This document shows positions 11,291 to 47,009 of a DNA stretch of 64,000 bases, piece after piece. Position 1 is the first letter of the stretch. Each line of letters begins with the position of its first letter. This DNA is from Gnetum montanum (Eukaryota; Plantae; Gnetophyta): contig MNCI01002485.1 in the NCBI GenBank assembly GCA_015680685.1, positions 1,060,033 to 1,124,032 on the forward strand. Direction: 5' to 3'. The position numbers and the translations under genes are program-made. A model generated the notes under the pieces. It saw only the letters and a program-made list of their open reading frames with translations. It searched no databases and had not been told where the DNA came from.

Positions 11291-12739
11291 CATTAAGGAT
11301 TGAGAACTTAGAAGGGGGATGAATAAATTCCCAATTGAAATTTTACCTCCCACAAAAAACACAAAAGTTTACATGGTTTCCCAAATTGGGTACTTCCATA
11401 CTTGGAGGGTAGAATCTATGCATGACTCTAGACTTTGTTTCTCAATCAAATGTGGTTTGAAGGTCACCACACTCTATACAATCTCTAAACTCTACACTGA
11501 AGTCTTTCATCACTGTAAAACCACTTAACCCCATAACATCCCAACAATATTAGAATGTGATTTCAAGGATCCCATAACCTTTACAAAATTAAGCTTTGCT
11601 CCAAAGTGGTTTGACATTCCAAAACCACTCAACCCTATCTTCTCGCAAGAAGTGCATCAACCCTGTAGGACAAGAAGAAAGAGAAAACGATGCAAGGAAA
11701 GAATGTAACTAAAATAACAAGTCCTTTCCATTGAAGCTAAATTCAACATACAATCAAGAAAATGATGTTACAATGAAGAACAAGTGTGCAATATCATAAA
11801 TATGATAATGATTTTTTTGATGTGAATAATGCTTATACAATTTCCAAGAATTTGGTGTGTTCTTATAGCCTCAGAGTTTTAAAAAAACTCCTTAGAATTC
11901 ATGCAGTGGCTACCTAGAGAGTAGTGTAGATGTCTCCTTTAAAGGTGGGATGTCTACATGAGATTGGTCTTAATTCAGGAGAGATGTCTTGCTGAAAAAT
12001 TGAATGTCTCATGTGGGACATCTTTGGGGAGACATATTCTCAGGGATTTAGACATCGATTATTTCTAGGAGACGTCTCCTCAACTCTTGGACTTTGGTTT
12101 ATGAGGCTTCCTCTCATCAATTTATCTTGTTCCTAGTCCTTGGAGCATCTTCATTTGGTTTGTAGTCTTCAATTTCAGTCCATGCTCTTTCATGCTTTCA
12201 TCTTGGCTCATATAGTTCAATTTGTTATCTCATTATAAATCTCATTTCCTTTTAGTCCTCCTATCTTATTTTTGAGTTCTTGTTTATCTCTTGTAAACAG
12301 ATCATCCACAACAAACATTTTATGCTCTTCATTTTTTGTAAGGTTTTGACATACTAAAAGGTCAATAATCCCTTTTTGATGATGTACAAAACTTAAGAAA
12401 ATGGATGAGTAACTATAAAATTTAAATAATAGTAAACAATAAAAATCCTTAAGACATATAAATTCCAATGGTAGTTAAAGGGAATCATAGAGGTAAAATG
12501 TAAGAGCTCAATCTAATAAAAATGAGACTAGAGATTTTTATAATTACAAATAGTCCAATGGCCAACCTATCTATATAGCATAAGTATAAATTTTACAAAC
12601 ATCATACATATGGTCACTCCAAAATGTATAAAATATATGGTCCAAAAATTCTCCTCCTTTTTGGACATCACCCAAAAGAAGGGACCACCGGAGAAAGCTA
12701 ATTATTGACCTTAGTGGCATCATTTGTGTCCTCATATGA

Positions 12740-14110
12740 AGTACCTGTAGCATAAAAAGGCTTGGAATTCTCCTCCTAATCATCATCACTACTTGTACTA
12801 GCACTAGAGATGTGCTACTCATCATTGTCATCTAAAGGTATATGGACTAGAGCCCTCCATGGATGAAGCTTCACTCGAAATTAAGATGAATCTAGTGGAT
12901 CTTATTGGAATGGGAACCTATTGAGAGGATGAAGAAGCACCCTTCCTCTAATAGGTGATAGGATTAATAGGTCTCCATTGGGAAGAAGTCCCAAAGATTC
13001 TCTTCATGCCCTACTACACAAATGTCCTTGGATCATCATCCTAATGATGGAAAATGGGTCCAAGCTACATGAGAATAGGAAGCCCCTCCTAAAAATGTGC
13101 TAGAGCTCCATCATCCTCCTCTCAATTAGAGACATTTCCTGAGTCATAGGCCTAGGAAGGCCTAGCTACTATTGAATGTCTTGGTGGGACTGGACAATCC
13201 TTATGACTGTCTAATATGGAAGGAGTGGTAATCTTCTCAAACTATTGTCCATTAGGAGGAAGAGATATCCCAACTTCATCCATTCTCTTACAAAATTAAT
13301 AGAGGTTCCTACCAATCCATCCAATAACACAAGAAAAGGATCTCAATAGCTTTTTTAGGGATGATGTCACCTATTCATTAAAAGATTTAGACCTTCTCAG
13401 CTAAGGAGGCTTGAGATGGTGATACAGATCTCTTCTCTCTAGATTTTTAAAGCCTAGTGTTGGGTTATACTTCATTGACATGGATGGAGCTCCTCTTTCT
13501 TGAATACTCATCAATGTTACTTTTTCCTTTACGAAAAGGCATGTCAGGTATGGAAACACCTCTCTATTGGATTAGAAAACTGATGAGGTGAGGATTCTCA
13601 TAGATTTTCTCCTTGGTGAAGATGCCAAACATGTCCCAGTAGAGAGTGTGACTCAAATCCAAGGGTTGCCCTACCAAAAGGTAATAGAGAACAAATGCTT
13701 GGGTTGGCAACAAATAATTATAGCTTCCTCCTTTTACAATGATATTGTGTAAAATAATGAGGGAGATGATGAAATAATTTGGGACCATTTGACTTCTATG
13801 AAATCTCCCACTACGTAGAGATACTAACTTCCCAAACAAAGCATCACAAAATTCATCTTGGGAGACAAGAATCACATCATTCATGGAATGAGTGGTGATT
13901 CTAAACACATAAGAACTATAAATTCCAAGAATAGCATTAACATCTTAAGAAGATACATCAATTAGAAAACCCCCAACCATGGTAGTAAAGACCACAACAA
14001 AAGCATTTCTAATCAAAATGTTGCTATAAAATTTACTGATGAAAATTTTAGGTATACAAAAATTCATCGAAATGAAAGTACCCAATTTGAAACTTTCATA
14101 TTCAATAAAG
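12740..14110 (-). pseudogene. Sirevirus env-like accessory ORF remnant
   Basis: IPKIFISKFYSNI...HNIIVKGGSYNYL...AFVLYYLLVGQPLDLSHTLY resembles SIRE env-like / plant transposon accessory proteins; Ser/Pro/Asp-rich tail. Confidence 0.65.
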
Positions 14111-15020
14111 AGACATCTTAATATCTTTTTCTTTAGTTTTATACAAAGATTTTGAAGAGATAAAAGTTCATTACACAGGAGTTCATACCTTTCTTTTTTT
14201 TTTTCCATTTGATCATTATCATCTAAAAGGATAGTATTGTCATTTGTGAGAGCCATACATATGAGATTTGAATCTTTTGAATTATCCTCCACTTCTTCTT
14301 CACTTTGCTCTTCATCATCACAGCTTGAGTAGAATATAGTCTTCTTCATGTCCATGTCTGTCTTATCCTTTCATTGTAACCTGCTATTGCTAGGATATTT
14401 GGAGGCCACATGGCCTCTTCCATTACATACCCAAAATCCTATTGAAAAAAGCATCAACATTAGAATTTGAAATATTTTTACCTCTATCCTTACCTTTGGA
14501 GTTGATTTGGTTGAGTCCTAATTAATTAAGGCTTATTCCCTTTCTTACATGAAGCCTTTGAACTCTTCTTGATAGAAGAGCTCTTTCTTCATCTTGTTCA
14601 CCTAGTTCCTTTTCTTTGGATGTTGATTTTTACACAAGGGGCTTCTCTATTTACTTTGAAAAACCAAGAGTTTTAATTGTTTAAGAATGGATGTGCCCTC
14701 ATAGGTATATTCTAAGGTTTTCCAAATTTCCTTGGTAGTTCTACATCTAGCTGCTCTATTGATATCAAATTTATTTAATGCACAATATAAACAATTTTTT
14801 TCTCTAGAATCATACAAGAGCTTATCTCTCTCTTTTGTGTTCACTTGCTCTATGGCTTAATTAACTTTGTTGTGTTATTGATGGATGAGGTGTAATATTC
14901 AAGGATGAACTCCCATACCTAAAATTTCATTGATTCAAAGAAGCCTTGCATCCTTGCCTTCTAATAAGTAAAATTAAACTTGTTGAACATTGGTGGCTTT
15001 GTATTGGATGTCCCCTCCAT
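14110..15020 (-). pseudogene. gag: Copia/SIRE gag remnant
   Basis: MEGTSNTKPPMFNKFNFTY*KARMQGFF start; YCALNKFDINR...KEIWKTLEYTYEGTS (UBN2-type gag); decayed zinc knuckle ~14405-14435; stops and an internal deletion. Confidence 0.85.
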
Positions 15021-15611
15021 AGTTTACTCTTGAAAGTTGAAGCCAAACGTAAGAGTACCAAGCTCTAATGGCACTTGAGGATTGAGAACTTAGAAGGGGG
15101 GATGAATAAGTTCTTAATTAAAATTGTACTTGCCACATAAAAAAAATTTTACATGGTTCTCAAACTTTGGTACTTTCACACTCAGAGGGTAGAATCTATG
15201 CACACCTATGGATTTTTTTTCTCAATCAAATATGGTTTGAAGGAAACCATAGCTTGTACAAGCTCTAAGCTCTACACCAGAGTGTTTCATCGCTACAAAA
15301 CCACCCAACTTTGCAATGTTCCAACAAGCTCAAAATGTGGTTTCAAGAATCCCACAACCTTTACAAAATTGAGCTCATGTTCAGAGTGTTTTGACATTCA
15401 AAAACCATTGAACCTTGCAGGGTCCCAACAAGCTCAATTAGGATGCCTTCTCACAAGACTTACATCAGCCCTATAGGTCAACAAGAAAAAGAAAAATATG
15501 TAAGGAAAGAATGTATCTAAAATTACAAGGCCTTATTGTTGAATCTCAATTCAACATATAATTAAGCAAATGATGTTACAATAAAGAACTAGAGTATAAT
15601 AGCATAGATAT

Positions 15612-16366
15612 CAATGAGGACATAACCCAGTGCATGTCTAAACCTTAATATGTTTATGTGTTGTTATGTTTTTCTTTTACTGTTGTTTTTTTGATGATGA
15701 TCTCAGGGAATTTTGACATGTTTGGAAGTGTTTTGGGGTCATTTTAATAACTTTAGGGTGTTCTGGGGGCTATGGGAACTTGTTTGGAGATATTTGGAGG
15801 TTCCAGGCCTCAAAACAAGCATATTTAACTTTTAACTTGATAGTATAGATGTCTACATTGCAAATTAGATGTCTCTTCCAAGGCATCTACCACAAGATGT
15901 CTCCTCTAAGACGTCTACTATAATAACTTTTGCACTCGAGAGAGATGTCTCTTGTTTCTCAAAGACATCTTCCACGGATTCTAATGAACACTCAATTAAA
16001 TGATAAATTATGGGAAAGATGAAGATACAAGAGAGGAAAAGGTCTAAATAGACCTCTTGGGCCTTACATTTAATCAAGAGAGTCTAAAGAGATAAGAGAG
16101 AGAGTCCAAAGTGAGTGAGAGGAGCATAGAAAGAGATAGAGTCTTGGCAAGATACCTTGATCATCATCCATGTGACTGTGTGATTTCTTTGATTGAGTAT
16201 GTGAGAGTTGGATTGAATCTCTTGTCTGTCCTTGGGAATTGTACTTTCTTTCATATGTAAATTCTCCATTTGAGTAAGAATAAAGTTTTCACTTTCCTTA
16301 TTCAAATTTATTGTTTTGTAAATTTAAGAGAGCTTGGATTATGGAATCCATGGGAGCTTCTCATCA
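15612..16366 (+). mobile_element. Solo LTR inserted into the Sirevirus 5' LTR
   Basis: Absent from the sister LTR; termini (CA)ATGAGGA...TTCTCATCA; TSD GATAT/AATAT; homologous to 1-560. Confidence 0.8.
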
Positions 16367-18310
16367 AATATGAAAATGATTGTTTTGATGTGAAAAGTGC
16401 TTGCATAATTTTTGGGAATTTGGTATATTCTTATAGCCTCAGAGTTTCTAAAAGCTCCTTAGAATTCATGCAATGACTACCTAACAACTAGTGTAGACAT
16501 CTCCTTTGAAGTTAGGATATTTATGTGAGATTGGCCTCAATTTAGGAGAGACGTCTTGCTAGAAAATGGAACATCTCATGTGGGACGTCTCTAGGGAGAC
16601 ATCTTCTATAGGATAGAGACATTTATTATTTCTAGGAGACATCTCCTCAACTCTTGGACTTTCATTTCTGAGGCTTCCTCTTGGCAATTTATCTTCTTCC
16701 TAGTCCTTGGAGCACCTTCATTTGGTGTGTAGTCTTTAGTTTCAGTCCATGCTCTTGCAATCTCTCATCTTCACTCATATAGTCTTCACTTTGTCATCTC
16801 ATTGTGGTTCTCATTTCCCTTGAGTCCTCTTATCTTGTTGTTGAGTTCTTGTTGATGTCTTGTAAACACATCATCCACAACAAACATTCTATGCTCTCCA
16901 TTTTTCTTAAGGTTTTGACATACGAAAAGATCAACAAACACTAATTTCTACTTAATTTAAATTAAAGAAAATGTAAATAAAAGAGTTTGGAGGTACACAT
17001 TTAGAATATTTCTAATAAGGTAAGCCTTTTAAATTTTCACCAAATTAGATATGAAATCACAATGTTCAAAGATTAATGGTTTACTACATAATGATATATG
17101 TTTATATCCATGAAATAAATAATAAAATTAAATTAAAAATATCCACCATCTCAAGTCATTAATGGCTATGTTATAATGATCATACTGAAATTAATTTATG
17201 CCATCCTATGCTATCAAAGACTTATCAATTTAAATGAGTAGAAATGATTAAGAAAAAAATTATGGTTTGGGAAAAAATCAAGGAAGGGTTTTTATTGCAA
17301 GTGAAATTATGATTTTTTATGACTATATTTTATGAATGAAAATCCATTTATAAGAATTCTATATGTTTGAATTAGCAAGAAAAATCATAATGAAGACCTT
17401 AGCAAAGATGAATCCTAAGAAGAAATTTCATTTTCAAGACATCTTGACAAGTGATAAATTGTGTTTTTCATATGCTCCAATATCAGAGTGACTACGATAT
17501 TGGGTACATGATATCATGGCCCAATATGCGATATTGTACATTTGATATCACAAGGTTACTCCTAAGTCTATAAATACAACCCCCGGGCACATGATTGAGA
17601 GTAGTTTTTGGTAGTTAAGTAGTGAAACTCTTGCAGTTTGTCCATTTGAGAGTTAGAATATTTTCCAAGTTCCTGTAGCAGAAGGTTTAAGTGTGAATGG
17701 ATATTTATTCAAGCATTGATGTACCTAAACACACTATTATGTTGGCAATAAAGATGAACTCTTCGATTCATCCTTGCAGCACTTGAGACTTTCTTTCTTG
17801 TGCATTTATACATATTGTGATTTCATGCAGTTTACCTTAACATTATTCATGTAGCAATTAATTTTGATTAATTAAGAATCTCATTAAGATACATAAGCAT
17901 GACCCCCTTCGAACATATGTGTGACACTTGGTAACTCATAAATGGTTAGCATTTGACAACCCAACAATGTTTACACAAAGCTCAAGATGTATTCAGGAAG
18001 TGGGAACAGTTACTTGTGTTAGTCTAGATTAGACCATAGTTTACTTAGCATTTAATTACTCTTACTTTCATTCTTGTTCTAGGTGAGTAAATTGATCAAA
18101 CACAAAATAATAAAAATCTTACACCTCATTCACACTTAACTATATAATTACATTCCACAAGTGGGACTGGGAAGATAATGAATGGGCAACACACATGCAC
18201 TATTTAGCTCTAGAGTACTTGGTAATTAAGGTTTGTGAAATTTAATCAGATCACATGTGAATACCTATGATTCATATGGTTGGGCATAGGGGTACCTTGC
18301 CTCTCATCAT

Positions 18311-18328
18311 TGGCACTGTTGCTGGGGA
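18311..18328 (+). promoter_or_regulatory. Primer-binding site, tRNA-Asp type (Athila)
   Basis: TGGCACTGTTGCTGGGGA = TGGCGCCGTTGCCGGGGA with three transitions, 1 nt after the LTR end. Confidence 0.9.
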
Positions 18329-18477
18329 CTTTAGTTCTACATGTGCTATCTAAACCGAGTGAAACTTAGTAACCTCGTTGTTTGAATCCTAAGAGTCAAA
18401 TCTTATGAAAATAAAAATTAGAATTATAATTAAATTAAACCTTAACTACACACTACATATAATTCCATTAACATAAA

Positions 18478-21400
18478 ATATCTTCTTCTCATAGGAGCCT
18501 ATCTCTACCAAAGGCAGACTAGGTACCTCAATAATACTGGGTGGTAAATGCTCATCCTAATGAGTATGTACCAAACTTCACCTTCATTTTGCATTAAGAT
18601 GAAATGATACGGTGGTGCGACATGCCAGGAAATGTTGTGTTGCCACCTGATTGATCTATTTGAGTGATGCCCTACTTAATGCTCACATGACATAGGCTTC
18701 AACATCTTCATGGAGATTACGAGATGCGAGATCTCAATTCAAGGGATTATCATCCCACTAAAGCACAAAGGTTAAGGAATTGTTAGCTAGAGCATCAACA
18801 TGAGCTTGTGAAGGGCAAGGGATCAAACACCTTTTCACCTCAGCTTGGACCATTAGATGGAGGTGACCACTTCTTTAGTGATTCTTCTCTCTTTGACTTT
18901 GTTCAAGGGGCCCTCAACCAGAACATGTAATCCACAATTCATAATCTAGGTTTTAGTCAAAATGGATCCAATGAAAAAACTGGATCTAGAGAGGCAAGTT
19001 AGGATAAGGGGGAAAAAGGATGTCATGATTATGATCGTGCTCATGATCATTGAAGAAAGGGTGATAGGTGTCAGTGTGGAGAAAGTTATCCTTCCTCTTC
19101 CCCTTCATCATCATCTTCTTCTTCTTCATCTGGCTCAAATCATGGCTGTAGAGGGAATCATCATGTTGGAGGTGACCATCGGGACTAGAATAAAAAAAGG
19201 GACCATCAAGACAATTATGGCCGAAGGCATGGGAAATCTAAAGAGGCCCATCATCAAGAAATAATGGCTAGTAGAGAGCATCATAGCCACCATCACCATG
19301 GCCTTGATAAACCTCTACTTGCTACTCAGGGCATGTTAAACATTGTAGAGGCTATGAGGATTCCAACAAGGCACATAAAGGATACCGGAATAAAGAGGCT
19401 AGACATTAAGAACATCCCTCAGTTTGAGGGAGGCTATGATGTTGATCCGCAAAATCATCTCCAAGCTTTCCAAGATGCATGTGCCTTACAAAAATATTGA
19501 GAATGACTGGTAGAAGTTGAAATTATTTCCAAGGACATTCATAAAGGAAGCATAAAATTGGTACCGATCCTTAGAGCCAAAATCAATCAGGTGGTGGAGT
19601 ACGATGTTGGAATTGTTCAATGATAAATATCAAACATACTCTGAAGTGTCCAATCTAAGGAAGTAGATCCAAGGGTGAAAACAAGAAAACCATGAGCCCT
19701 TGGATGCCACTATTGATTAATACACTCTCTATTGCATAGGTGTCTCAGCCATGGATATTCTCAACTTGATTAACTTCACCATATCATAGATGGGTTGCAA
19801 TCTAAAATAAGAAAAACCCTCGGAATCTATGCTCAAGGGAGATTGATAGAGTTAAGTGCTCATGAGATCCAAAATTTAATTGAATAGGTAGCCAAGGAGG
19901 AGGGAGAATTGAGAAAGTGTAGAAGAATACAACAAGGACTCTTCTATCCAAAAAATGAGGTTTGATTTTGTAACAACGAGGATGAATTAACCAAAGATGA
20001 GGTGGCTAATCTAAAAACCTTGCCACTCTAGAAATTGTAATCTGAAATCATGGCTAAGGTTGATCAATTATGGGACTCTATGGACCATAGGTTTCAAGCT
20101 ATCTTAAAAATGGCTGAGGTGTCCAAGGGGCAATGTGGTAAGCATGAGCACTAGAGATGTAAAGAAGCTAAATGTGCTATATCTAAGGGTAAGGGTAAAA
20201 TGGCTATGATAGATATGGTTGTAGATAGTGACTCAGATGATGATGGTGGGTGTGACATCTACCAATATGAACATCCTAAGGGATGTTATCTAATTATGTC
20301 ACACTTGCAGGAATTTGGGGTGTATGCATTACATTCATGACTTGCACAAAGGAAAAAACCCAAAATATTACCTTATCCATAAGGGAACACTCAACAATTC
20401 CACCAATGACATTAGTACCATCCAAGTGTAACTCCATCACAACCTTATGAATTTTACCAATAGTGGCAATAATCACAATCATGGGTGTTGGAACCTCCAA
20501 GACAACATTATCCTTATCTGAAATGAGATCCCTATGGTTACTATTTTCAGAAGCCTTCATCTCCATGGGACTCCTTTGGTCATGTTGCCACTTACCAACC
20601 TCACCACTACCATCGTGAAGTATAGCAATCATCCTATCCAGGAGGGATGCCACCTACTATCCTCATACTCCTCCTATCCCTACACCTACTTCTTTGTCTC
20701 ATGCATAGTTACCACCTACTCCTCCATCCATGTAGGGTGAATTGCCTACCCAACCACAATAAAGAAACACTACTAGGGTGATTAATCTACAACCGGTTAA
20801 CCCAGCAAGTAGGTAAAAATCATGATAAAATAAAAGACCCTTCTTCCAACCTTGTAATTCACCAAAGCCCTCAGACACATTAATGGTTGGTAACCCTGCT
20901 CCTCCACCTTCCTTTATTTCACCTTTATCTGATTCCCCTTCAAATCAAAATCCCTCTCAAATCCATACTGTAATGTTAACCCATGTTGTATATGATTGGA
21001 TTCAAGCTAGTAACCTACCTAGGTAGTTAGCTAATCTTTGGAGTCCTCAAGTATATTTCCAAATTGTTGTGAATGAGCCTTGTAAAGATCTTCTTGACTC
21101 TAGTTTTAGTGTTAATCTAATCTCTCATGAGATGTACACGATGTGGAACCTTCCTCCCTTGAAGAAGAGCAACATCTAGCTGTAACTAGCAGACCAGTCC
21201 ATCACTATTCCATTAGGATTGGTAGAGGACATCATAACCACTATTTGTGGATGGTCATATCATATCGACTTCCTAATAATCAAGGTGGAGAAATATAAGG
21301 GGGACTTCCCAATTATTATGGAAAGGGCATAGTTAAGCACCATTGATGCCAAAATGGGCATTAGAGATCTTTCCTTGGAGATATCTAAAGAAAATGAATT

Positions 21401-24400
21401 TGGAAAGATCAAGAAGAAGAAGATTCCATGTATCACATACAATGATTTAGGGTGCTATTGTGTGCAAAAGTTATAATCAATGAAGTGAACATCTATCTCT
21501 GCATGTAAGCAGTGTCCACCTGAAGTTGAAATTCAAAGATGCATGTACACGATAGCCACAAGACAAGAAGGCACCCAGTAGCTGAAAACTGATTCTAGTA
21601 GTAGTACATTATGCATGGAACCTACTGAGGGCCTAATGTATGAATATGTTGCAAGTATGGATGAACTCAATCAAGTTCATCACCAACTCTCTGAAGGAGT
21701 AAATGATGATGTCAATTAGGGAGAACTGGAGATTCCTAACAATTTTAAACAGGAACTCCTTGAATTGAAGATACTATTACCTAGAATGAAGTATGTGTTC
21801 TTTAAAAATGGAAGGTTTATCATTATTAATGCCAAGCTTGCTACATAATAAAAGAAAATGTTGATGAAGGTGGTGGGAAAATGGTTAGCAGCATTTTCCT
21901 GGTCATATTCTGAGCTCACTGGTATAGATCCAAGAATATGCTAGCATCAAATATACACTAACCTCACTATTACACTAAAATAACAGCCACAATGATGTTT
22001 GAATCTTAAATTAAAGTAGATTGTTAAAGAGGAGATTGAATAACTCCTCAAGGTGGGATTCATCTACCTTGTTGTAGATAGTGAGTGGGTCAATCTACTC
22101 ATGATTGTGCCCAAGAAAGAAGGCAAATGGTTGGTGTGCATTGACTTCTGGCTACTCAATATGGCAACTTTCAAAGATCATTTTTCATTTTCTTTTTATT
22201 GACCAAGTGCTAAACACCATTTCTGGGCATAACTATTACAACTTTCTAGATGGTTATAATGGCTATAACTAAATTTGAATTGCACTAGAGGACCAAGTGA
22301 AGACGACTTTCACAAGTCCTTGGGGGACTTTCTCTTATCATTAGATGTCATTCGGTCTATGTAATGCCCTAGCCACATTTCAACAATTATTCTTTAGCAT
22401 TTTCCAACAATAAATTGGTAGTGGGGTAGAAGTCTTCATGGATGACTTTTCTACCTATGGAGCTACATTCAAGTAAGCCCTGGACCATCTTGTGCAAGTG
22501 TTAAGGAGATGTGTCAAATAAAACCTCCAGCTTAATTGGAAGAAGAGCCATCCTATGGTCTAGGAAGGCACAGTTTGGGGGCACCATATCTCAAAAGCAA
22601 GAGCTAAGGTAAACCCTAGAAAAATAAGGGTCATCCAAGGAATAACCCATCAACCTAAAACAATTAAAGAAGTGTGGTCATTCCTTGGTCATACTGGCTA
22701 CTACCAGTGCTTCATTGAGAATTTCTCCAAAATTGCCAAGCCATTAGTGGAATTGACAAAGAAGGATGCATCATTCATCTAGAACCCTACATGTGAAATA
22801 GCAGTTCAACAACTGAAGCAAAAGTTTACTGAAATCTCCATTCTACAAGCACCTGACTAGTTTAGGCCATTTCATGTGATGACTGATGCATCAAATTATG
22901 CTTTGGGGGTAGTGATTACATAGATGGATGATAAAAAATGTTCATATTACATTCACTACAAAAGCCAAAGTATTACAGGTACACAGCTGAACTACACCAC
23001 CATAAAAAAGGAATTGATGGCAGTGGTGTTCGCATTAGAGAAGTTTAGGCACTATGTGCTTGGATATAAAGGGTTCATGCACATAGATCATAGTGCCATA
23101 TGGTTTCTAATGAATAAACCAATGGTGAGCCCTCATGTTATATGATGGCTCATGATTTTGCAAGAGTTCGATCTTAGAATGGTAGATTGAAAGGGTGTGG
23201 AGAATGTATTTGTTAATCACTTATCACAACTAAGATGGGATGACAAGGAGAAAGAGAGCCTCTTAGTTGATCATTTCCTTGATGAATATCTCCTTTTAGG
23301 AGCTATTAATGCATAAATTCCTAATAAACCAAAATGGTGTGACACCATCCTCACTTATCTGCTTAAGCAAGAACTACTGCAAGGGCTAGACACTAAAAAC
23401 AAACAACAGTTTCTTCACTAGGTCAAGCATTTCATGGAAACTAATGAGAACCTTTACAAAGTCTATTCTGATGGCTTGGTACACTGGTTTTTTCCTAATA
23501 TATATCAACTGCATGTTCTCCAAGATGCTCATGAAGGCCCTTATGTAGGCCATTATGCTAGGAGATGAACAACCATAAAAATCCTCATGGAAAGATATTA
23601 CTAGCCAACAATCTTTAGGGATGCATACCAATTCATATGTGCTTGTGATTGTTGTTAGAGGGATGTTGGAATGATATCTTGAATGGATTCAACCTCTTGA
23701 GCCATTCGATATTTGGGGCATTAACTTTATGGGTCCCATTGCACCTTTGTCAAATGGAAAGGCAAATATCATAGTCACAGTTGACTATTGCACTAAATGG
23801 GCAAAAGCAATAGCCATCATTGACTATACATCCACTACTACTACTTGGTTTGTATAAAAAAATGTCATAAATAGGTTTGGTGTGCCTTTTTCATTAATTT
23901 CTAATAATAGAAATCATTTTATAGGTGCCACTTTTCAGAAACTTTTGCAGTGCTTGGGGGTTGAGCACAAACTCACAACACCATATCACCCCCAAGTCAA
24001 TGGTCAAGCTAAGGTCACTAATCAAGAGATTACAAAAATTCTAACATGTACCATTAGTAAATACTAAAGGGACTAGAGCACCAAATGAAACAATGCCCTT
24101 TGGGCCTATCACTCCACATGGAATCTTCCCATAAGTTATTCTCCATATTAGCTCATGTATGGAAAACTACCAACACTACCCATCCAATCTGAGCTTTGTA
24201 CACTCTTTATAGCCTATGACCTTGACCTAAATGTAAGTCTAGCATAGAAAGAATGATTAATGAACCTTAAATTACTAAATTAAAATTGGTTAATCGCCCT
24301 ATCATTAAACAAAATGCATAAGTCATTCAACAAGAAACACCATGACCTCAAAATAAGAAAAGTCAAGTTTCAACCAGGAGACAAGGTCCTCTACTAGAAT

Positions 24401-24667
24401 CCTGCACACATACCCCAATGAACCAAATTTTAAACATTGTGGGAAGGACCTTTCATTATTTATGAGACTTTTCCATCTAGGGCTATGATTATCTATAAAC
24501 ATAATAGCCCAAATAAGAAACAATTAATCAACAACCAATAATTAAAGCCCTTCTATGAGCCCATGCCAACCAACTCAATAGACACCTTGCTAGATGGACA
24601 ATCATACTCAATCTTTTGGATCTCCTCCTTCCAACTTAGTCATGGGTGAGATGGCCATACATGCTAA
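18478..24667 (+). pseudogene. gag-pol: gag-pol of element A, many stops and frameshifts
   Basis: Gag IPQFEGGYDVDPQNHLQAFQDAC; protease LLDSSFSVN (~21090); RT VPKKEGKW.VCIDF and VEVFMDDF (~22430); RNase H VMTDASNYA and YTTIKKELMAVVFALEKFR; integrase HHCC, PFDIWGINFMGP, TTPYHPQVNGQA. Confidence 0.93.
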
Positions 24668-26252
24668 CACTTTATGTGGATCCTCATTCTTTGACTTTTC
24701 TATTTTACACATTTTTGGTTTTACAACTTTTTGTCTTCATATTCTTTGTTTTACATCTTTTTGTTTTTTAGGTTATTGATCTTTTCTAAGTTTTTGTTTT
24801 ACACCATCATTAATATATTTGATATTTATTGCATACTCTTTTACTTCCTTTTATATTTTCTTGTATTTGATATGTCTCTCTACTCTTTTTGTTAATAAGG
24901 TATTAAGTACAATGGTAATGTGCTACTCGATGATGGTATGTTTCATTTGTATCTATTTTCAGACTTTGAATGTTGTTACTGACATTTTGGGACATGGTTT
25001 CTTTTCATGTAATAGGCAATGAGACCACATCATCCACCATCCACATACTCTATGGTTTTCCTTGTTTTGGAAACATGTAGTCTCTTTTTCATTAATGCAA
25101 CTTTAATAAATTGGTGACTTTTGTAGTTTTCAAAATTGGAAAAGAATCAAAGGTTTGGATAGGGTGTGGCTTCAAAGGATGTAGTATTCTTCATAATTTT
25201 CTATTTTCTTGTGTGTGGGTGTGTTCTCATGAGCTTCTCACCATTCTGTGTCATTCCACAATAGGAAGTCAAATAAGTCCTTGCATGGTGTGGTCCTCAT
25301 TGAAAAAAAGAAGAGAAAAGAAGAAGAAATGATATGAGGATTCAAAGAACATCCCTTGAAAAAAATAAATACAAAAAACACATGGGTCTTTGCATGGTAT
25401 GATTCCCATAAAAAAAACAAACATGGAAATTCAAAGCACACCCCTTAGCCCAAATAAAAGGGCTAAAAGCATTGGTTATTCAACTTGTCTTGTCTCCTCT
25501 AACTAAGGCCCTTTCTCACTTCCTACTTTCTCTCCAATTTGGAATGATGGTTGTTTGGTGGAGGCAATCTTGTATCTTAGGTGATGGACTAGTCTTAGAA
25601 TGTCGATGTGAAGTCACTGAAAGTGGTTGGTTTTGGTCTAGACTGAGGATGGATCCTACCAAGTCATTTAATTACAAACTCCACAAGGGACTTCATGTGA
25701 CCATAATTAGGAACTCTGTTTCATTTTCTCTATCATCCATTTATGCTTTTCATGTATCACCTCACTACTAGTTTCATGTTTTAATTCATTGTCCTGGTTT
25801 GATGTGTCAGGTTTCTCAGTCACTTACTTCTAGGTTTTTGTACCTAACTTTTCATAACCATTAATCATCCATGGTGTCCATGAACTCCTTTGTTTGAAGT
25901 TATTCAAGGGCATAAAAGGGCTATGCCTACTTTGGGGAGGACCCACTTGCATATCTTTTGGTTGGGTTAAGTTAAGCTCTTTACCCATGGACATTGTTAC
26001 AATCGAATTCTTTTTATTTACCCCATCAATGCCATCCAATTGCATACATCTTCACAACTATTGTTTGTGAATTCCTTCTTTTTATTGTTGTGAATTTATA
26101 TACCCTATTTCTAGTATTCCTTACATTAAGATTTTTCTAAATTTTATGGACAGCTTCTCTTACTTAACCCATCAGTCTTCCCACTAACATTATCAAGCAA
26201 CCAATCTATCACAATCACAACTTGGCTAGATAAAAATCACCAATGGGACAAG

Positions 26253-26312
26253 GTATTTAGCTATTATCTTTTACACTTTATATACTAATCCTTGATTTTA
26301 TTGTGATTGCAG
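26253..26312 (+). other. Putative 60-nt spliceosomal intron in the 3' region of element A
   Basis: AAG|GTATTT...TACTAAT...GATTGCAG; equivalent intron in three other elements. Confidence 0.75.
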
Positions 26313-27899
26313 TGGTGATCATGGACTGGAAGTGGGATTATCTTCATTGAGGATGCAACAATATCACTCACGGGAGATTGTTCAAGATTGTTGGATCTTT
26401 TCTGCCTCTTCCTCATTCTTCTATTGCCAAGAGGGTTTGGATGTCCATTGGATCTAAGGGTGTTCTTTCCTATTATCAGGAACACCCAACTTTGTACAAA
26501 ATTGTAATGTTGTATGCTTGGGAACTTCTATATTTGTCTATTTTCTCTGTGTCACTTTGCATGTTAGTCACATAGTCCACACTTCCTCATATATTTTGTA
26601 AAGGACTTGTTCCTCCTCTTCTTCTGTACTCAAGAAAAAGTTTTCATTTAGTTGTGGGGGTATGATAAATCATTCTTTTCATATGCTTTGATATCGAAGT
26701 GGCCATGATATCGGGTACATGATATCAAGTACACGATATGATGGCCCAATATGTGATATCGTACATTCAATATTGCAGGGTTACTTCTAGGTCTATAAAT
26801 ACAGCCCCTAGGCACACAATTGAGAGTATTTTTTGATATTAAAGTAGTGAAACTCTTGCAATTTTTCCATTTGAGAGTTACAATATTTTCCAAGTACCCA
26901 TAGTAGTAGGTCTAAGTGTGAACAGATCTTTATTCAAGCATTGATGTACCTGAACACACCATTATGTTGGTAATAAAAAATAACTCTTTGATTCATTCTT
27001 GCAGCACTTGATACTTTCTTTCTTATGCCTTTATACATATTATGATTTCATGTAGTTTACATTAATTTTATTCATGTAGTAATTAATTTTGATTAATTAA
27101 AAAACTCATTAAAATACACAAGCATGACCCCCTTCGAACATATGTGTGACACTTGGTAACTCAAAAATGGTTAGCATTTGACAACCTATTAGTGTTTACA
27201 CAAGGTTCAAGATGTTTTGGGGAAGTGGGAATGGTTACTTATGTTAGGATAGATTACACCTTAGTCACACTTAACCATAAAATTGCATTTCACAAGTGGG
27301 ATTGAGAAGACAATGAACAGGCAACACGCACACATTGTTTAGCTCTAGCATACTTGGTAATTAAGGTCTATAGAATTCAACCAGATTGCACATGAATGCC
27401 TGTGATTTGTATGATTAGGTGTAGGGGTACCTCACCTCTCATCAACAAGGAATGAAGACTTTATGATGTTTCCCATGAACTCATTGCAGGAGAAGATAGA
27501 ATTAAAGAGAAATATTATCTTCAAATTCACATTGTTTCTCATTAATGATCTATCTAAAAATGCATGTAGTGCTTAATTCAATTGGATTAACATAATATGT
27601 TGTACTCAAGCTACATATAAGAAAATTAATGAAAATGAAGAAATTATAAAAATCTTGTATACCTATAGGAACAATTTCATGAAAATATTCTATAATGGTA
27701 ACTCTATCTAAGTTCTCATTAGTAGCTTTCTAATTATCCTAATCATGAATGACAAAAATTTCCACATTTCATTAATAGTTACCCATTTATAAATAGAAAT
27801 TTTATATTTTTATTTGTCCTATTCCAACAAGAGTTTGAGTTATGTAGGAATGATATTTTAATTAACCTTGATTGTCTAGATAAGCCTATTTTGTTGTAC

Positions 27900-34169: not shown

Positions 34170-34896
34170 TGTAACGTCCTATATATAAGGGGATATTTGC
34201 TATTTCCGTTGTGACCTTTATGATAGTTACAACTAAAATTCCATGATATTTAAATTTCTAATAACTTTACGTGGAAGTTAAATTTAACTTTACGTGGAAG
34301 TTAAATTTAACTTTATGTGGAAGTTATAACTTCTTAAGATAGTTATGAATTAATCTCCTAGATATTTGTAACTCACCTCTTTCTTTCATGATGATTCTAA
34401 CTACCCTGAAGTCACTATAAAAAGGGTTTCAAGGGTAGAATTCAAGGAAGGGGATTTTTGAGAGGAGTTTTTGGGGGAAAGCAACCTAGAAGAATATTGA
34501 AGATTTCTCGTAAAGCATAGCTTACTAAAAACATCAATTCAGCTACTTTGTTTTAATTTTGCAAGTTCATTTTTTCTCATTTTGTTTTAGTTACTTAGCT
34601 AATGGTTTAAATAGTATCATGTTTGGCATTTAATTTTTGGATGGAACCAAAAGTCAATGAGTTTGAAACTAGTTTTCCATGATTATTTACCACATATGAA
34701 TTCACGGATCTAGGATTTCGTAAACTAAACATAGTTGAATTAGTCAAATGAATGAAGGCTCTTACTAGATCAAAAGCTAGGAAAGCCATTATCAAGGCAT
34801 AACCATAATAACAATCTAACCCCTTTTTCTTTCTTTTTGATATTTATCTTTTACTTAGAATTTGCATGTGTTTTCTAGTCTTAGTTTATACATTGA
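34170..34896 (+). repeat. LTR-like repeat (TGTAACG start), interrupted by element B; inverted homologue of 6600-8020
   Basis: TGTAACGTCC at 34170, tandem repeats, CTATAAAAG TATA at ~34415; the interrupted sequence resumes after 47970. Confidence 0.55.
34262..34326 (+). repeat. 23-bp tandem repeat x~3 (TAACTTTACGTGGAAGTTAAATT)
   Basis: Two exact copies plus one with C>T; each has TAACTT/AAGTTA inverted arms around TACGTGG. Confidence 0.92.
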
Positions 34897-36131
34897 TGAT
34901 GAATCATGGTTTGTCAGGTGCTGATATTGGATCCTTGATGTTGGACCCTTGACATTGGACCCTTGACGTTGGACCCTTAACATCAGACCCTTAACATCGG
35001 ATCCCTAATATCGAACCCTCGATATCGAGTACACGATATTATGGTTCTTGTGTAAGCCTATAAATACCACATTTGGGCGCACAAGAAAGTAGTAAGTTTT
35101 AAAGTTAAGTTTTAGAGTTAGTTAGTCTTAGAGTAGAATCTTTTTTTCATTTTTTAGTTCTTCTCAACTCCTTCTCTAGTGCATGCTCACAATGTGATGA
35201 TTATAATTGTATGGAACCTTTATTCCCTGCAATATCGCGTACGCGATATCGTAGCCCGCTGCCAGTTGTATAAATAAGAGGCGGCTCTCCCTTGTTTCTC
35301 CATCTAGATCTAGACCTTAGCCAAACTCTTGCCATTTTTCCATTCCAGAGTTAGAATAATTTCCATGTGCCCGCAATAGGAGTCCCAAAGTGAATGGATC
35401 TTTATTCGAACAATTTTGTACCTAAGCACACGATTGTGTATAGCAATAAAGATGAACATTTTGATAAACCTTATAGTGCATGGACTAAGCTAAATAGGAA
35501 TTTAATTATTGTTAATGTTTAAATGCTTTATTAGTTAATTAAATCTCTCTCAACCCTCAACTCCTAGTTAAGCACATTCAGTACGATCGCTTCGAGCATG
35601 TACGTTACACTTGGTAATCCTAGTAACGAATAGTGTTTGGTAATCCCAGTAGCATTGCATTGGTTCAGGGTGTGAAACGGAAAGTGGGAACGGATACTGA
35701 TGCTAGGGTAATTAAGGCTTAGTTAGTTAAAGTTAGTTACTTAGTATCTTCACCCTTTCCCTCATTAGCATAGGCAATAAAACATAAAAGATATAAAAAT
35801 CACATGCCTCAAGCTTACTTAACCATACAACCGTGACAAATACAAGTAAGCTTGGGAGGACAACAATTGATTAACCTTAGGTGTTCCATAAGGCGTGTAG
35901 GCACTTAGTCTGCGGAGTTCAACTGGATCGTGGGTGTAACGCTCGTATTCATATGGTTGAGTGTAGGGGTGCCTCACCAATCATCATTGGCGCCGTTGCC
36001 AGGGACAAAGTTGTTTGTGTGCTAAGTAGAACATAGGAAATCATCCACATCATTGGGAAGCTTAAATGAATCCTTAGGGTTAATTAGAAAAAAATTTAAA
36101 CAACGGTCAACAACACACCAACAAGATAACA

Positions 36132-39100
36132 ATGTCTTCTTCTCATAAAAGCACTTCACCACCTAGGGATCACAGAAGAGACAGTCGGCAGCACAACATA
36201 CATAACCAAGAACCATTAGTTCCTCAACAATTTAGTGTGGTATATATTCATCATGATGAATATATACCTGACTTTACCTTTGTCTTCCATCAAGATGAAC
36301 AACTATGATGGAGAGACTTAGAGGGTAACATAGTGTTGCCTCCAGACAAAGCCACCCCCAACATGCTCCTTCGTGCCCTTGCATGACTTGACATGTCGCA
36401 ATTATACACTGAGTATGTTGCATGCTATTACAACATGAGGGACTACCATCCCACAGAAGCGCAACATCAATGGGACTTGTGACAGGAGAGTCACCACACA
36501 TCATTGAAGGGCAAAGGCCTCCATAATACTTCACCCGTTATAAGAGAAATTAAGGGTGGTGAACCTATCTCAGTAGGTTCTCCATGAAATGATGTTCCTC
36601 CTCCTAACGATAGTAAGGAGGTAGGGTATCAAAACATTCACTCCATGATTCACAACCCTAGTTTTGATTCCCACAAAATCTAAGTGTTCAATAAGGGAAC
36701 ACAAACACAAGATAAGGGCAAGCATTCTGATCATCATCACGATCGGGGCCATAGCCATCGAAGAGAAGGTAAGAAACATCATCATGGCGATGGTTCCCCT
36801 TCTTCTTCACCTTCATCACATCATTGACCCTCTCCTTCCACATTCAGATACAATCACAAAGAGCACAACCATGAGGATAAGGGTAAAGATAAGCAAAATG
36901 AGAGACCTTGACGAGAGAGTTGAGAGCGAGGATGAGGGCATTCTAGGGAATCAAGGCATGAAAGAAGGGAAAGTAGGGAACCACGTAGGCATCATAGATG
37001 TCATGAGAGAGATGATCATGAAGAACCCCTATTAGCAACCTGGAGTATGCTAGACATTATGGAGGCTGTGAGAATACCTACAAGGCACCAAAAAGATAGC
37101 TGGATCAAAAGACTAGACATGAATAATATCCCACAGTTTGTGGGGGGATACAATGCTAATCTGCAGAATCACTTACAAGCATTCCATGATGCCTGTGCCT
37201 TGCAGAATATTGAAAACAAGTGGAAAAAGTTAAAGTTGTTCCCTAGGGCACTCATAAAAGAAGCAGAAAGTTGGTACTGGTCCTTAGAACTGACATCCAT
37301 TAGACGATGGAGTATGTTGTTAGAATTGTTTACGATAAATACCAAACATACTCCAGAGTGTCCAACTTGCATAAGCAGATCCAAGGATAGAAGCAGGGTA
37401 ATCACGAACCCTTGGATGCTACCATGGGCTGATATTATGCATTGCTACATCATTGCCTAGGCCATGGTTACGCACAATGGGATCAACTATGCCACCTCGT
37501 AGATGGGCTAAGACATGAAACTAGGAGAACCCTTGGGACATATGCCCAAGCGAAATTATCTAAACTTAGGTCCCATGAAGTTCATATATTTTTGGAGCAA
37601 GTAGCTAAGGAAGAAGGGGAGCTATGGAAAAGAGAAAGCACAGAAGAATATAACCGTGATGCTTCCCTTCGAAAGAGGGAAGTGAGATTCTATGAGGGAA
37701 GTGAGATTCTATGAGGAGGAGGATGAGTCATCACTTGAAGAGTTGGTGAATAGAAAAACCTTGCCACTTCAAAAGTTAACAACCAAAGTGTCAGCTAAGG
37801 TAGATCAAATGTGGGACTACTTAGATAGTAGATTCGAAATTTTTTTTAACATCATAGAGGAGTCTAAGAAATGAAGTAGTGACCATGATAAGAAAAAGCG
37901 AAGAGATTCAGACCATGCACATAACAAGGATAAGGGAAAAATGACTATCACTGATGAGGTTATGGATTCGGATATAGACAATGATGGTGGATGTGAGATC
38001 TGCCAATATGACCATCCTAAGAGATGTTTCCCAATAATCTCACATTTGTAAGAGTCCGAGGTGTATGCACTCAACCCAAGACTTAACAAATGGCAAGCAC
38101 CCCGAAGGTTACTTTATCCCTAAGGTAACCCAAGGAAGTTCCACCAACCCTTAATGTATTATCCAAGTGGAACTCTGCCACAACCTATCGAGCAACACCA
38201 ATAGTGGAATTACCCACAGTCATGCCACCGCCAAGACAACAATACCCTTATCGGCAACCAGACCCATGTGGCTATTATGTGCAGTAGCCAGTTTCTCCAA
38301 GTAACTATATGGATCATGTGACTTCACAACGACACTACCAAGTTCAGGAGTATTTTAAGACTCCCTCTCCTAGAGGAGACACTCCACATGCATACCATCC
38401 TTCGAATCCATCCACATCTCTTACGCCGATAGTTCCACTACCACCAACTCCAACGATGCAAGGGAAACTCCCCACTCAACCGCAACAACATAATGCTATA
38501 AGAGCTGTAAACCTTCAAACCACTATTGGTTCTAACAACCATACAAAGAGAAGATCCTTCTTTAGAACCAATAGTCCAAACAAGCTCTCACAATCACAAG
38601 CAGTTGATTCTATGACCACTCCTCCATCAAGAAAGGCTTCGGAGCTCCCTTCAAACCAATAATAGAGCTCAACGCACATGGTTACGTTAACAAATAATGT
38701 CACTGACTAGATAAAGGTGGGCCACCTCCCTAGGAAACTCTATGATCCTAGAAGTCCCTTAATCTATCTCCAAGTTACTGGGAATGAACCACGTAAGGCT
38801 CTTCTTAACTCAGGTTCTAGAGTCAACTTAATATCGCAAGAAATGTATAAAACCTGGAACCTACCTTCACTTAAGAAGAGCAATATTTAATTAGAGCTAG
38901 TTGACTAGTCCATCATTGTCCCTTTGGGACTTGTGGAGGACATTATTACCACTATGTGTGGTTAATCATACCTAGCTAATTTCCTAGTGATAGAAGTCAA
39001 CAGTAACAAAGGGGACTTCCCAATTATAATGGGGAGGGCATGGCTTAGCACCATCAACGCGTTCCTAGGAATCTACGATCTTTCCTTGGAAATATCTAAG

Positions 39101-39514
39101 GAAAACATTTATAGAAAAATTAAGAAGAAGAAAGTTCCATGCATCACATACAGTGATACAGAGGATGATGACATGGAGGAATGTTCAACATCTCTTGCAT
39201 GCAACCAGTGTGCTCAGGAAATTAACATATAAAGATGCCTGTATGTAGCAACCACACAACAAAAGAACACCTAGTGGTTGACAGCTAATCAAGAGAGCAA
39301 CCCATCAATATGCATGGAACTAACTAGGGGAACAACTTGCAATTACAACGAAAGCATAGATACATTGGAATATGAGCGTCGCCAACTTCCAAGCCTTAAT
39401 CTAAAAACATCAATTGGAAGAAGTTGGACACTTCTAAAAAATTCAGATAAGCACTCATTATTTCAGATCTCTCCCTTTCAGTTCATTCATGGGGGAGATG
39501 GCCACCTATGCTAA
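36132..39514 (+). pseudogene. gag: gag-protease ORF of element C joined to the extreme C-terminus of pol
   Basis: ATG (MSSSH) at 36132; colinear with element A gag and PR (ALLNSGSRVN ~38800, DFPIIMGRAWL); ends FQFIHGGDGHLC*, matching the pol end of A; a 19-bp tandem duplication at 37675-37712 shifts the frame. Confidence 0.88.
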
Positions 39515-40975
39515 TCATTTGGGGCTCTCAGTTCTTTTTAAGTTTTTATTTTACACATTTTTGTTTTACAAATCTCTTTAAATTTTCTTGTTTTTGTTTT
39601 ACAACATTTTTTATACTTTTTCTTTTATTTGTGTATGTATGTGTGTGCCTTATCCAGTTTGTTAAGTTTGTCATCTAGTAAGTGCTATTAAATGATGGTA
39701 TGAACTGTTTTCTATTAGTTGCTAATATTTGGTTTTTACCTTTAAGTTATGATGTTGATACTAAGGTATGGTTCTTTTGATGTAGTAGGCAATGAGTCCA
39801 CATCACCGGCGCATCCACAATTTCTATGGTATCTCTTGGCTTGGAACTGTATAGTCCCTTTCTCAATAATAAGAACTATCAATGAATTGGTGACTGGGCA
39901 TTTCTCAAACTAAGGAAGGACTCAAGGATTGAAAGGGGTGTGGCTTTAAGGGAATTTGATGTTTTGTGTTGGCCATTCTCTTGGGTTCTTGGATGTTTTC
40001 TTCTTGAGTTTTCTTACCATTCTGACCATTGCCATATTCTCGGGAAGCTGAGTAAATAAAAATAATGAGTCTTTGCATGGTGTGGTTCTCATGCAAAAAC
40101 ACAAAAAAAAAGAAAAAAACTGTGAGAATTCAAAGCACACCCCTTAGACAAAATAATCATTTGGGCTACAAGCATTGGTTATGGAACTAAAATAGACATG
40201 TTCCATCTAACTAAGGCTCTTCTCGCTTCCTATTCTCTCCTCCTTCATTTTGTCGAAATGGTGGTGGCTCTTGGATGAAGGCATTCTTGTTACTTCAAGT
40301 GGATGGATTGGCTGAATGCATTAATGCAAAGTCACTGGATGTGGTTTGTTTGAGGCCAGACTAGGAATGGAATCTACTAAGTCACATTAATCATTAAAAT
40401 ACACAAGGGGCTATACACCACCTTGTCCTTGAGACTCCATTTCATTCTTTTCTTTCCATCATTCTTTCTCCATTGATCACCTCATTGTCGGTTGTATCAT
40501 TAGTGTATATTTTGGTTGACGCATCATTTTCTTTGTGGTAAATTCTTATAGTTAAGGCTTTAACTCTTGTTTCCAAATGACATTCCTAGAGCCTACGGAC
40601 TCTTTAAATGTGGGATTGTCAGGGCATTAAGGGCATGAGCCTGCTTTGGGGAGGACCCACTGGCATTCCTATTTGATGCATCTGTTAATTTCTTTCCTCT
40701 AAACATTGCTACAAACACCATTTATTTCATTCATTTCTATCTTTGACATCCCTTTTTATCAGTGTTATAGTTGTTTCTTTTTCTTAATCCTTCTTATTCC
40801 TTCTCTTTTTCCATTCTCTTGCTATTGGAGGTTCGTGATTAGTCATGGGGGTCCTGGTCCAATTTTTTCAATTTTCTCCTAACCCCTACACCTTGGGTAG
40901 TCATCATTAGCATATCTTCAGAATCCATAATCATCCATACCACAACTCAGCCAATGGACCTTACACCGAAGCAAG

Positions 40976-41035
40976 GTATTAATTGCATTATGATTCATTT
41001 ACCCTTGCTAATATAAGACTGTGTTGTGTGTGTAG
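40976..41035 (+). other. Putative 60-nt intron in the 3' region of element C
   Basis: AAG|GTATTA...TGCTAAT...GTGTGTAG. Confidence 0.75.
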
Positions 41036-42895
41036 ATGGCAATCATACAACAACAAATTGGACCTAGAGAGAACACTTTGAATGGATTGGTGTTGAAGTA
41101 GTTATGTAAGGAGCAAGATTGATGGTGCGTTTATGGATGGACAAAGAAAGGTGCAATATTTTTGTTGGCAACAACAGACCTCTTCTCTCTTCTCTCTTCT
41201 CTCTTAGCTACCAAATAAGGCCTAATGTCAAATGTATAAAGTGTTCACCCTTGTGTCATGAACACCAATTTTGTCATGTTCTGTAATGATGATCTGTTCA
41301 CATGTCATCCCATTCACCATTAGTTCCATTCAAGTCAATAATCCCATACCTTCCCAATATTTTGTAAGGAACTTGAGGATGACTTTTTTTTCAGTCATGT
41401 GGATATGATGGGATGCAGCCACGATATCGCGTACGCGATATTGCAGCCCGCCGCTAGTTCTATAAATAAGAGGCGGCTCTCCCTTGTTTCTCCATTTAGA
41501 TCTAGACCTTAGCCAAACTCTTGTCATTTTTTCATTCCAAAGTTAGAATAATTTCCGTGTGCCTGTAGTAGGAGTCCCAAAGTGAATGGATCTTTATTCA
41601 AGAAATTCTGTACATGAGCACACGATTGTGTATGGTAATAAAGATGAAATTTTCGATAAACCTTGCAGTGCATGGACTAAGCTAAATAGGACTTTAATTA
41701 TTGTTAATGTTTAAATTATTTATTAGTTAATTAAATATCTCTCAACCCTCAACTCCTAGTTAAGTGCATTCAGTACGACCGCTTCGAGCACATGCGTTAC
41801 ACTTGGTAATCTGAGTAATGAATAGTGTTTGGTAATCCCAACAGCGTTGCATTGGTTTAGGGTGTGAAATGGAAAGTGGGAATGGATACTGATGCTAGGG
41901 TAATTAAGGCTTAGTTAGTTAAAGTTAGTTACTTAGTCTCTTCACCCTTTCCCTCATTAGCATAGGCGATAAAACATAAAAGATATAAAAATCACATGCC
42001 TCAAGCTTACGTAACCATACAACCATGAAAAATATAAGTACGCTTTGGTGGACAATGATTGATTAACCTTAGGTGTTCCATAAGGCGTGTAGGTACTTAG
42101 TCTATGGAGTTCGACCGGATCATGCATGTAATGCTCGTATTCGTATTGTTAAGTGTAGTGGTACCTCGCCACTCATCATTGATGTACTTGAACACGCACA
42201 TGACCGATAATAAAGATCAAGATTACTTCATCATTGCAGCATTCACTTAGTTTTAATTGCTTAATATTATTTTTATTTATTGCTTTCTTAATTAATATTT
42301 CTTTAGATTCATTTCCTATCCCTGTTATTAAATGCAGAATGAGGACGACTTAATCATGAGCATTTAAGTGTGACTACTTGGTATCCCAGTAGCATACCTA
42401 GCACATGTGCTTGGTAATCCTAGTAGTAGTACACAAGGTCCAAGATGTGTATGGAAGATTAAGGAAAAATTCTCATCACACTTAGGCTAGCTCAAATTCT
42501 CCTCTTGCATTCCCTCTTAACTTAAACAAGTTATTTTCATTGCCTATAGAAGTAGCACTAGGTTAGAAATCATATCATACACCTCACTCTAGACTAAACC
42601 ATACATGACAAAGCAAATACTAGTCTAGGTGAAAAGATAGTGAACTCCGATCAATTAGTAACTATCTAGATACCACAACTAGTCCATCCGCAGAGTTTGA
42701 TTGGATCATGTGTAAACACTCATATTCATATGGTTGAGTGTAGGGATACCTCGCCACTCATCATTGGCACCATTGCTGAGGACAATGCTAGTATTTTAGA
42801 TTCATTATATCATACAAGATTGCTGTAACAGAGTATTAATGATATATCTTTTAGAAAGAAGTAATTGCAAATAAGTCACACACAATTTCACAACA

Positions 42896-46325: not shown

Positions 46326-46387
46326 GTATGAAATAATTGAACTTCTTTCAATAACCTTACTAACACTTGATCTTTGTGTGATTATAC
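46326..46387 (+). other. Putative 62-nt intron in the 3' region of element B (acceptor AG mutated to AC)
   Basis: AAG|GTATGA...TACTAAC...GATTATAC|ATGG; same branch-to-end spacing as the other copies. Confidence 0.6.
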
Positions 46388-46804: not shown

Positions 46805-47009
46805 GTTCCAATAAATTTTGTAATTCTATGTCTATGTCCCAATTTTATTTTGTTCAATCCCACACTATGACATGAATAATTCCTAGTTAGTCAATAATCC
46901 CAAACCTATCCACTGTGTAATCAATTTGACTTGTTCTCATTTCTTTTAACTCAAGTATGAGTTGTTATTCAGTCATGTGGGTATGATGAATCATGGTTTG
47001 TCAGGTGCT

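Follow-up and report, generated by a model that had tools for sequence, protein, structure and literature searches.

A conserved intron-like segment of about 60 nt upstream of the 3' LTR in four Athila-like retrotransposons

The 3' regions of four Athila-like Ty3/gypsy elements in the window (the whole stretch of DNA analyzed, 64 kb long) carry a homologous segment of 60 to 62 nt laid out like a spliceosomal intron. Judged by the alignment of the four copies, this segment is a real, non-random feature. Our preferred reading, held tentatively and at a little less than an even chance, is that it is a genuine, if weak, spliceosomal intron, kept under selection and mostly retained in transcripts.

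Host elements

The window, which comes from a plant with a repeat-rich genome, is made up of nested, decayed repeats and has a G+C content of 34% and three stop-free frames of at least 150 codons. The four elements that carry the segment and their main parts are as follows.

17452-27444, plus strand: element A, a full-length, broken Athila-like Ty3/gypsy element
17452-18309 and 26663-27444, plus strand: LTRs of element A (653/768 identical), with a 5-bp target-site duplication
ca. 18311-18328, plus strand: primer site of element A, after the 5' LTR
20916-24580, plus strand: pol of element A, with RT, RNase H and integrase in gypsy order and many stops and frame changes
25930-25952, plus strand: conserved purine-rich, PPT-like motif of element A, ca. 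300 nt upstream of the segment
ca. 40644 (C), ca. 46050 (B) and ca. 63370 (D, minus strand): homologues of the purine-rich motif
34850-47965 (start approximate), plus strand: element B, gag only (gag domain, Pfam), with the shared part of its LTRs 504/579 identical
35232-42179, plus strand: element C, limited to gag and the protease region, without RT, RNase H or integrase, LTRs 684/756 identical
61755-63560, minus strand: element D, a 3' LTR plus the last 930 nt of the internal region, truncated upstream by another LTR piece

When stops were read as X, the pol of element A gave Pfam matches to RVT_1, RT_RNaseH, Integrase_H2C2 and rve in this order, while no Pfam match to a protease was found in this decayed copy. 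Its best relatives were unlabelled plant polyproteins, mostly 41 to 49% identical, with which the stretch from RT to integrase was collinear (489 versus ca. 480 amino acids), so that an additional RNase H would not fit. An archaeal-type RNase H, the feature separating Athila from Tat, was not detected in the three pieces of element A pol scanned, and the search with gag returned one unnamed protein. Behind pol we found no env-like ORF; the longest sense ORF there had 119 to 121 codons and matched no Pfam family above the cut-off. Elements A, B and C have in common a primer-site motif after the 5' LTR, which may be of the tRNA-Asp type. Considering the similarity of pol and the layout, we call elements A to D Athila-like.

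The 5' LTR of element B harbors element C, and the LTR matches of B break at 35224 and resume at 42185. Both B and C are devoid of RT, RNase H and integrase, yet they have kept the 2-kb 3' region. Athila4 and Calypso have an extra internal PPT downstream of pol (PMC2829016), and by likeness to them the purine-rich motif may act as an internal PPT.

Several other repeats were seen in the window. Arrays of a 14-bp tandem repeat stand at the start of both element B LTRs (34868-35053 and 46955-47168). What seems to be a solo B-type LTR lies at 6642-7534 inside another repeat, whose other part is found inverted at 34308-34604. In the region 11293-16938, LTR-like direct repeats (11293-12368 and 15075-16937) flank a minus-strand frame with a weak match to Transposase_32 (E value of 0.007, below the cut-off).

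Position, motifs and length of the segment

The preliminary description of this DNA had reported the four segments listed below, and its coordinates, lengths and motifs all proved exact when the sequence was read again.

26253-26312, plus strand: segment of element A, 60 nt, with an AAG/GTA donor, CTAAT at 26285-26289 and a TGCAG acceptor
40976-41035, plus strand: segment of element C, 60 nt, intron-shaped, ending in TAG
46326-46387, plus strand: homologous segment of element B, 62 nt, ending in TAC rather than YAG
62982-63041, minus strand: segment of element D, 60 nt, intron-shaped, ending in CAG

All four have an AAG/GTA donor, with the GT in its consensus context, although the donors are weak at +4 to +6 (TTT, TTA, CTT and TGA across the four copies), a G at +5 being present in one and absent in three. 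The branch motif is CTAAT or CTAAC in every copy, and its last A is always followed by 24 nt up to the segment end, which is YAG in three of the four (CAG in A and D, TAG in C). Each segment lies on the sense strand of its host element, in non-coding DNA between the internal purine-rich motif and the 3' LTR, from which it is separated by ca. 350 nt in A, C and D; in element A, it is found ca. 1.7 kb downstream of pol. Criteria published for plant introns include a YURAY motif within 30 nt of the acceptor and an A+U content of >59% (PMC3371709). The segments fit both, with a YURAY branch motif no more than ca. 30 nt from the acceptor in all four and an A+T content of 68 to 75%.

Length is where the segments depart from ordinary plant introns. 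At 60 to 62 nt, they fall under the lower limit of 70 to 73 nt given for plant splicing (PMC3095359) and at the 60-nt floor applied in junction calling in Arabidopsis (PMC3371709), although these angiosperm limits may not be those of the host; being shorter than 70 to 73 nt, the segment is predicted to be retained. The distance from donor to branch point, ca. 35 nt, is likewise below the minimum of 46 nt described for human introns (PMC11291888), a limit that may not apply in this host.

The same dimensions would be expected if the segment were a docking module for the spliceosome that is never cut, being too short to splice, and that binds U1 and U2 while leaving the genomic RNA whole. We regard this as unlikely. 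Such a module would promote the export of the RNA, its accumulation, or the formation of its 3' end in the LTR close by, roles also judged unlikely; it would account for a length below the cited plant limit in all four copies, for the short interval between donor and branch point (under the 46 nt of PMC11291888) and for the spacing of ca. 350 nt between the segment and the 3' LTR in elements A, C and D. Low-level enhancement was still seen with a plant intron that had intact splice sites but had been cut down to less than the limit (PMC3095359). However, the YAG kept in three of four copies suggests that the second splicing step matters, and both the human and the angiosperm limits may fail in this host.

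Conservation of the splice positions

Pairwise identity over the aligned columns of the 3' regions was 69% between A and D and 51 to 56% for the other pairs. The preliminary description had stressed a fixed geometry in four divergent elements. The geometry stands, but the copies are homologous and belong to one lineage, so that it was inherited and does not represent four separate events, and the proper question is whether the splice positions have been kept better than their neighbors. Among four sequences, two of them close (A and D), and in the one MAFFT alignment mode on which the statistics depend, invariant columns made up 11 of the 17 splice positions defined by the consensus versus 9 of the 46 other positions of the segment (Fisher P = 0.0011; binomial P = 0.002 against a background of 28%). 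Thus, in the comparison with neighboring bases that had been proposed as a check, the splice motifs were the better conserved.

As a null, we kept the positions of the conserved columns, and with them their clustering, and redrew the letters in 5000 shuffles; this was preferred to a plain column shuffle (0/5000), which was judged too lenient. A conserved cassette of donor, branch motif and acceptor appeared in 1 of the 5000 shuffles with an AG/GT donor, in 5 with G/GT and in 117 with GT only, all in the alignment mode (one of three MAFFT modes) in which the donor of element B aligns with the other three. The whole 3' alignment (genafpair mode) contained nine invariant runs of at least 4 bases, three of which coincide with the donor, with the branch motif and with a TGTG that precedes the acceptor. 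On the antisense strand of the 3' alignment of the four copies, no conserved intron cassette was found, and an antisense intron was rejected as a candidate. The claim that the rest of the intron differs between copies holds for the 5' interior (17 to 58% pairwise identity) and fails for the stretch from branch motif to acceptor (45 to 75%, with the invariant TGTG). The segment persists in the autonomous-type element A and in the pol-less B and C, with flanks down to ca. 50% identity.

Conservation could also have come about without splicing, if the block were a different cis element (for reverse transcription, packaging or protein binding) or reflected shared descent, its likeness to an intron being a chance product of A+T-rich DNA picked out afterwards. 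We consider this rather unlikely, though it deserves some weight. The copies are homologous, other conserved blocks unrelated to splicing are found close by, and the block as a whole, interior included, is the best-aligning part among the relatives of element C. To this can be added that no splicing was observed, that the loosest null reached 117/5000 and that a loose intron pattern matched six times in the 64-kb window versus 1.5 expected, two of the matches being unrelated to the four segments. Nonetheless, conservation sits on the donor, branch motif and acceptor and drops in the 5' interior, and the copies have no common RNA structure and no Rfam match.

The search for further copies yielded none: a 22-nt pattern of the upstream motif had one chance bacterial match in metagenome contigs and none in viral contigs, and the integrase of element A gave no loci in viral contigs.

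Coding and RNA-structure tests

The frame after the acceptor stays open for 47 codons in A and, in the same frame, for 99 in B, while in C and D it closes after 14 to 15. No codon periodicity was detected downstream of the segment, mismatches between A and D being spread 18/22/16 over the three codon positions. A coding exon after the acceptor was rejected for now, given the lack of codon periodicity and of protein relatives of the element B ORF, and the region around the segment is treated here as 3' non-coding. Without an ORF or a codon signal, a spliced 3' mRNA would have nothing detectable to encode. A structured RNA element was also rejected: fold z-scores were -0.58, -0.64, +0.58 and -1.96, with no shared fold and no match in Rfam.

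In element B, a stop-free frame of 105 codons (46371-46685) runs through the acceptor and enters a stretch that exceeds its counterparts in A, C and D by ca. 250 nt. Its 105-amino-acid product matched no Pfam family and had no relatives among 1.84 billion representatives, and its Atlas scores were all <0.9.

The open frames of A and B bear on the possibility that the segment is a relic, the last intron of a decayed extra ORF or of a captured host gene with no present function. Fast-evolving extra ORFs are frequent at this place in elements of the Athila group (PMC6317226), and the 99 open codons directly after the acceptor in B share their frame with the 47 in A. Nevertheless, there is neither a codon signal nor a protein relative, and an intron devoid of function should have decayed like its flanks, which the segment has not. 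We hold this to be the least probable of the explanations considered.

RNA evidence

Four raw RNA runs (X21 to X24) were used, carrying the same species label as the best-matching DNA run; X24 is an unstranded poly(A) library. Among the runs listed by the search with this DNA, none was an RNA run, an outcome that says nothing about expression. Reads were mapped at 80% likeness to a narrow region around the segment of element C (40560-41170), for which the table of joints was complete with three entries, none of them at the segment. In none of the four runs was the junction 40975>41036 found at a threshold of 3 reads, so that the check for junction reads from expressed copies came out negative for the relatives of copy C. 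Mean depth over the segment was ca. 368 in X24, 560 in X21, 136 in X22 and 33 in X23 (ca. 1,100-fold together), and it peaked over the segment (1,098 versus 463 and 635 in the upstream and downstream flanking bins). No loose read ends fell at the donor or acceptor among the 24 listed of 325. In a wider mapping, which used one DNA run and three RNA runs, spanned both C and B and was coarse for B, no skip of 60 or 62 nt appeared among the best 15 of 172 joints (weakest total support, ca. 18). Nor did these best 15 of 172, from RNA and DNA contigs and with the DNA joints covered in part, contain any sign of intron-less genomic copies.

The lack of a junction and the peak of depth over the segment indicate that RNA from the relatives of copy C retains it. 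The regulated intron retention proposed in the preliminary description is thus borne out as far as retention in these relatives is concerned; the spliced 3' mRNA found no junction to back it, and nothing observed points to regulation of the retention. Almost all of the mapped reads came from other, diverged copies rather than from C, and the flanks aligned only ca. 40 to 60% as many reads as the segment, both of which make spliced reads harder to catch. In runs X21 to X23, sense RNA made up just ca. 147 of the 730-fold depth when first-mate-minus was taken as sense, an assignment that agrees with poly(A) ends at 40119. Passive read-through, with old copies as its source, probably accounts for much of the mapped RNA. 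The junction reads that mark a U2-type intron were absent for the relatives of C in four runs at a sensitivity limited by the flanks and by antisense RNA, and as a rough bound we infer that the spliced share in X24 is at most a few percent.

The reads also carried information on the acceptor. At 41033, 294 of 355 reads in X24 and 451 of 584 in X21 had a C, which gives TGCAG as in element A. TGCAG is the plant acceptor consensus, and its presence in most reads favors selection on the acceptor.

RNA in X21 over 40665-41170 was mainly antisense (ca. 480 versus 79 over the segment), with 26 molecules starting at 40930. This antisense RNA was probably produced by priming on an A-rich tract of antisense or host-intron RNA.

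Conserved signals at all three places and no junction are what a docking module left uncut would produce as well; the RNA result, though, covers one subfamily, mostly old copies and much antisense. More improbable still is the fuller version of this idea, in which a family of the Athila lineage holds a sub-minimal intron and recruits the spliceosome with it for 3'-end processing or export while the genome stays intact. If it were true, the intron problem of retroelements would be solved by length alone, across subfamilies only ca. 50% alike and through the loss of pol.

A second intron-like segment behind pol

Two further intron-like segments, homologous to each other, were found closer to pol.

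24936-25015, plus strand: second intron-like segment of element A, 80 nt, just after pol
39698-39788, plus strand: second intron-like segment of element C, 91 nt, homologue of that in A

Both lie behind a long T-rich tract, where the acceptor of an Athila env would be expected. In C, 200 poly(A) reads of X24 were clipped at 39812 and differ from the DNA just upstream of the post-pol acceptor, at which a DNA loose end carries a canonical acceptor. The clipped reads may represent splicing or one divergent expressed copy, and no donor matching the loose RNA ends was found in the window.

How a weak intron could persist

If the segment is a weak intron, its 60 nt, the short donor-to-branch interval (ca. 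35 nt) and the missing G at +5 in three donors would make for poor splicing, and the unspliced majority of the genomic RNA would be packaged and copied. Poor splicing that leaves most of the genomic RNA intact would suffice for every copy to have kept the segment, and no special regulation would be needed. A minority of the transcripts of active elements would be spliced at the segment, which would probably serve as the final intron in a subgenomic RNA whose entry point is the acceptor directly downstream of pol. This occasional use in active elements would keep the splice signals under selection.

In favor of the weak intron are the conservation of the splice positions, the sense orientation with no antisense counterpart, the TGCAG in the reads and the precedents for partial splicing, which together bring it to not quite an even chance. 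Against it are the lack of a junction at threshold, the peak of depth, the lack of a coding signal and the TAC at the end of the element B copy. In LTR elements of maize, splicing falls with the age of the element (PMC13192763), and copies A to D are old, so that the lack of a junction weighs less against the intron.

Comparison with known systems

Introns are absent from plant LTR elements in general, Ogre and EVADE being named as exceptions (PMC12786077), and retention with partial splicing is already known in Ogre, EVADE and Athila. In Athila, a spliced env-like subgenomic RNA exists beside the unspliced genomic RNA (PMC7197481), a precedent that the preliminary description did not mention and that lowers the surprise of our finding. 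The elements studied here resemble Athila, Calypso and Bagy-2 in the lineage assigned by pol and layout, in the PPT-like motif after pol and in the T-rich tract with an acceptor-like site. Theirs, however, is an acceptor before a long env-like ORF, whereas here there is no such ORF and a complete 60-nt cassette, predicted from its sequence, is located downstream of the PPT-like motif. Diaspora (PMC1142308) also belongs to the Athila lineage, has no env-like ORF and has a tRNA-Asp primer site, but it has 128 bp between pol and PPT compared with ca. 2 kb here.

A short complete cassette before the 3' LTR was not found in the available parts of the literature searched, which included PMC1142308, PMC2633040, PMC3276544, PMC13547354 and 10.1101/2024.04.02.587720; such an intron may already be on record in the primary papers on Athila4/Calypso, on Bagy-2 and on Ogre splicing, in the surveys of extra ORFs in plant gypsy elements, or in the supplementary material of PMC6317226 and PMC13547354.

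Removal of the Ogre intron (Tat clade), which has a mean length of 274 bp and is placed between gag-PR and RT, joins two ORFs, and this intron offers a precedent in that it survives retrotransposition because only a subset of the transcripts is spliced (PMC6317226). The segment described here differs in position, being 60 nt long in 3' non-coding DNA, ca. 1.7 kb after pol in A, with no detectable ORFs to be joined. In EVADE, with which BARE has been grouped, alternative splicing of the Ty1-copia gag intron balances genomic and subgenomic RNA (PMC7197481 and PMC12786077); unlike our segment, EVADE belongs to the Copia superfamily, has its intron within gag-pol and yields an abundant, translated spliced product. 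Canonical introns have also been described in non-coding DNA of maize LTR elements (PMC13192763). Those introns have a mean length of 1.3 kb, are located within the LTR and have long-read support, while the present segments are outside the LTR and very short. According to a 2025 review, RNA export of plant LTR retrotransposons has not been the subject of direct studies (PMC12786077), and the segment provides a small, testable handle on how these elements keep splice signals and yet export unspliced RNA. Should the segment prove to be no more than a 3' intron with occasional splicing, a new position would join the known list; if it works uncut, it would represent a new way of using the spliceosome.
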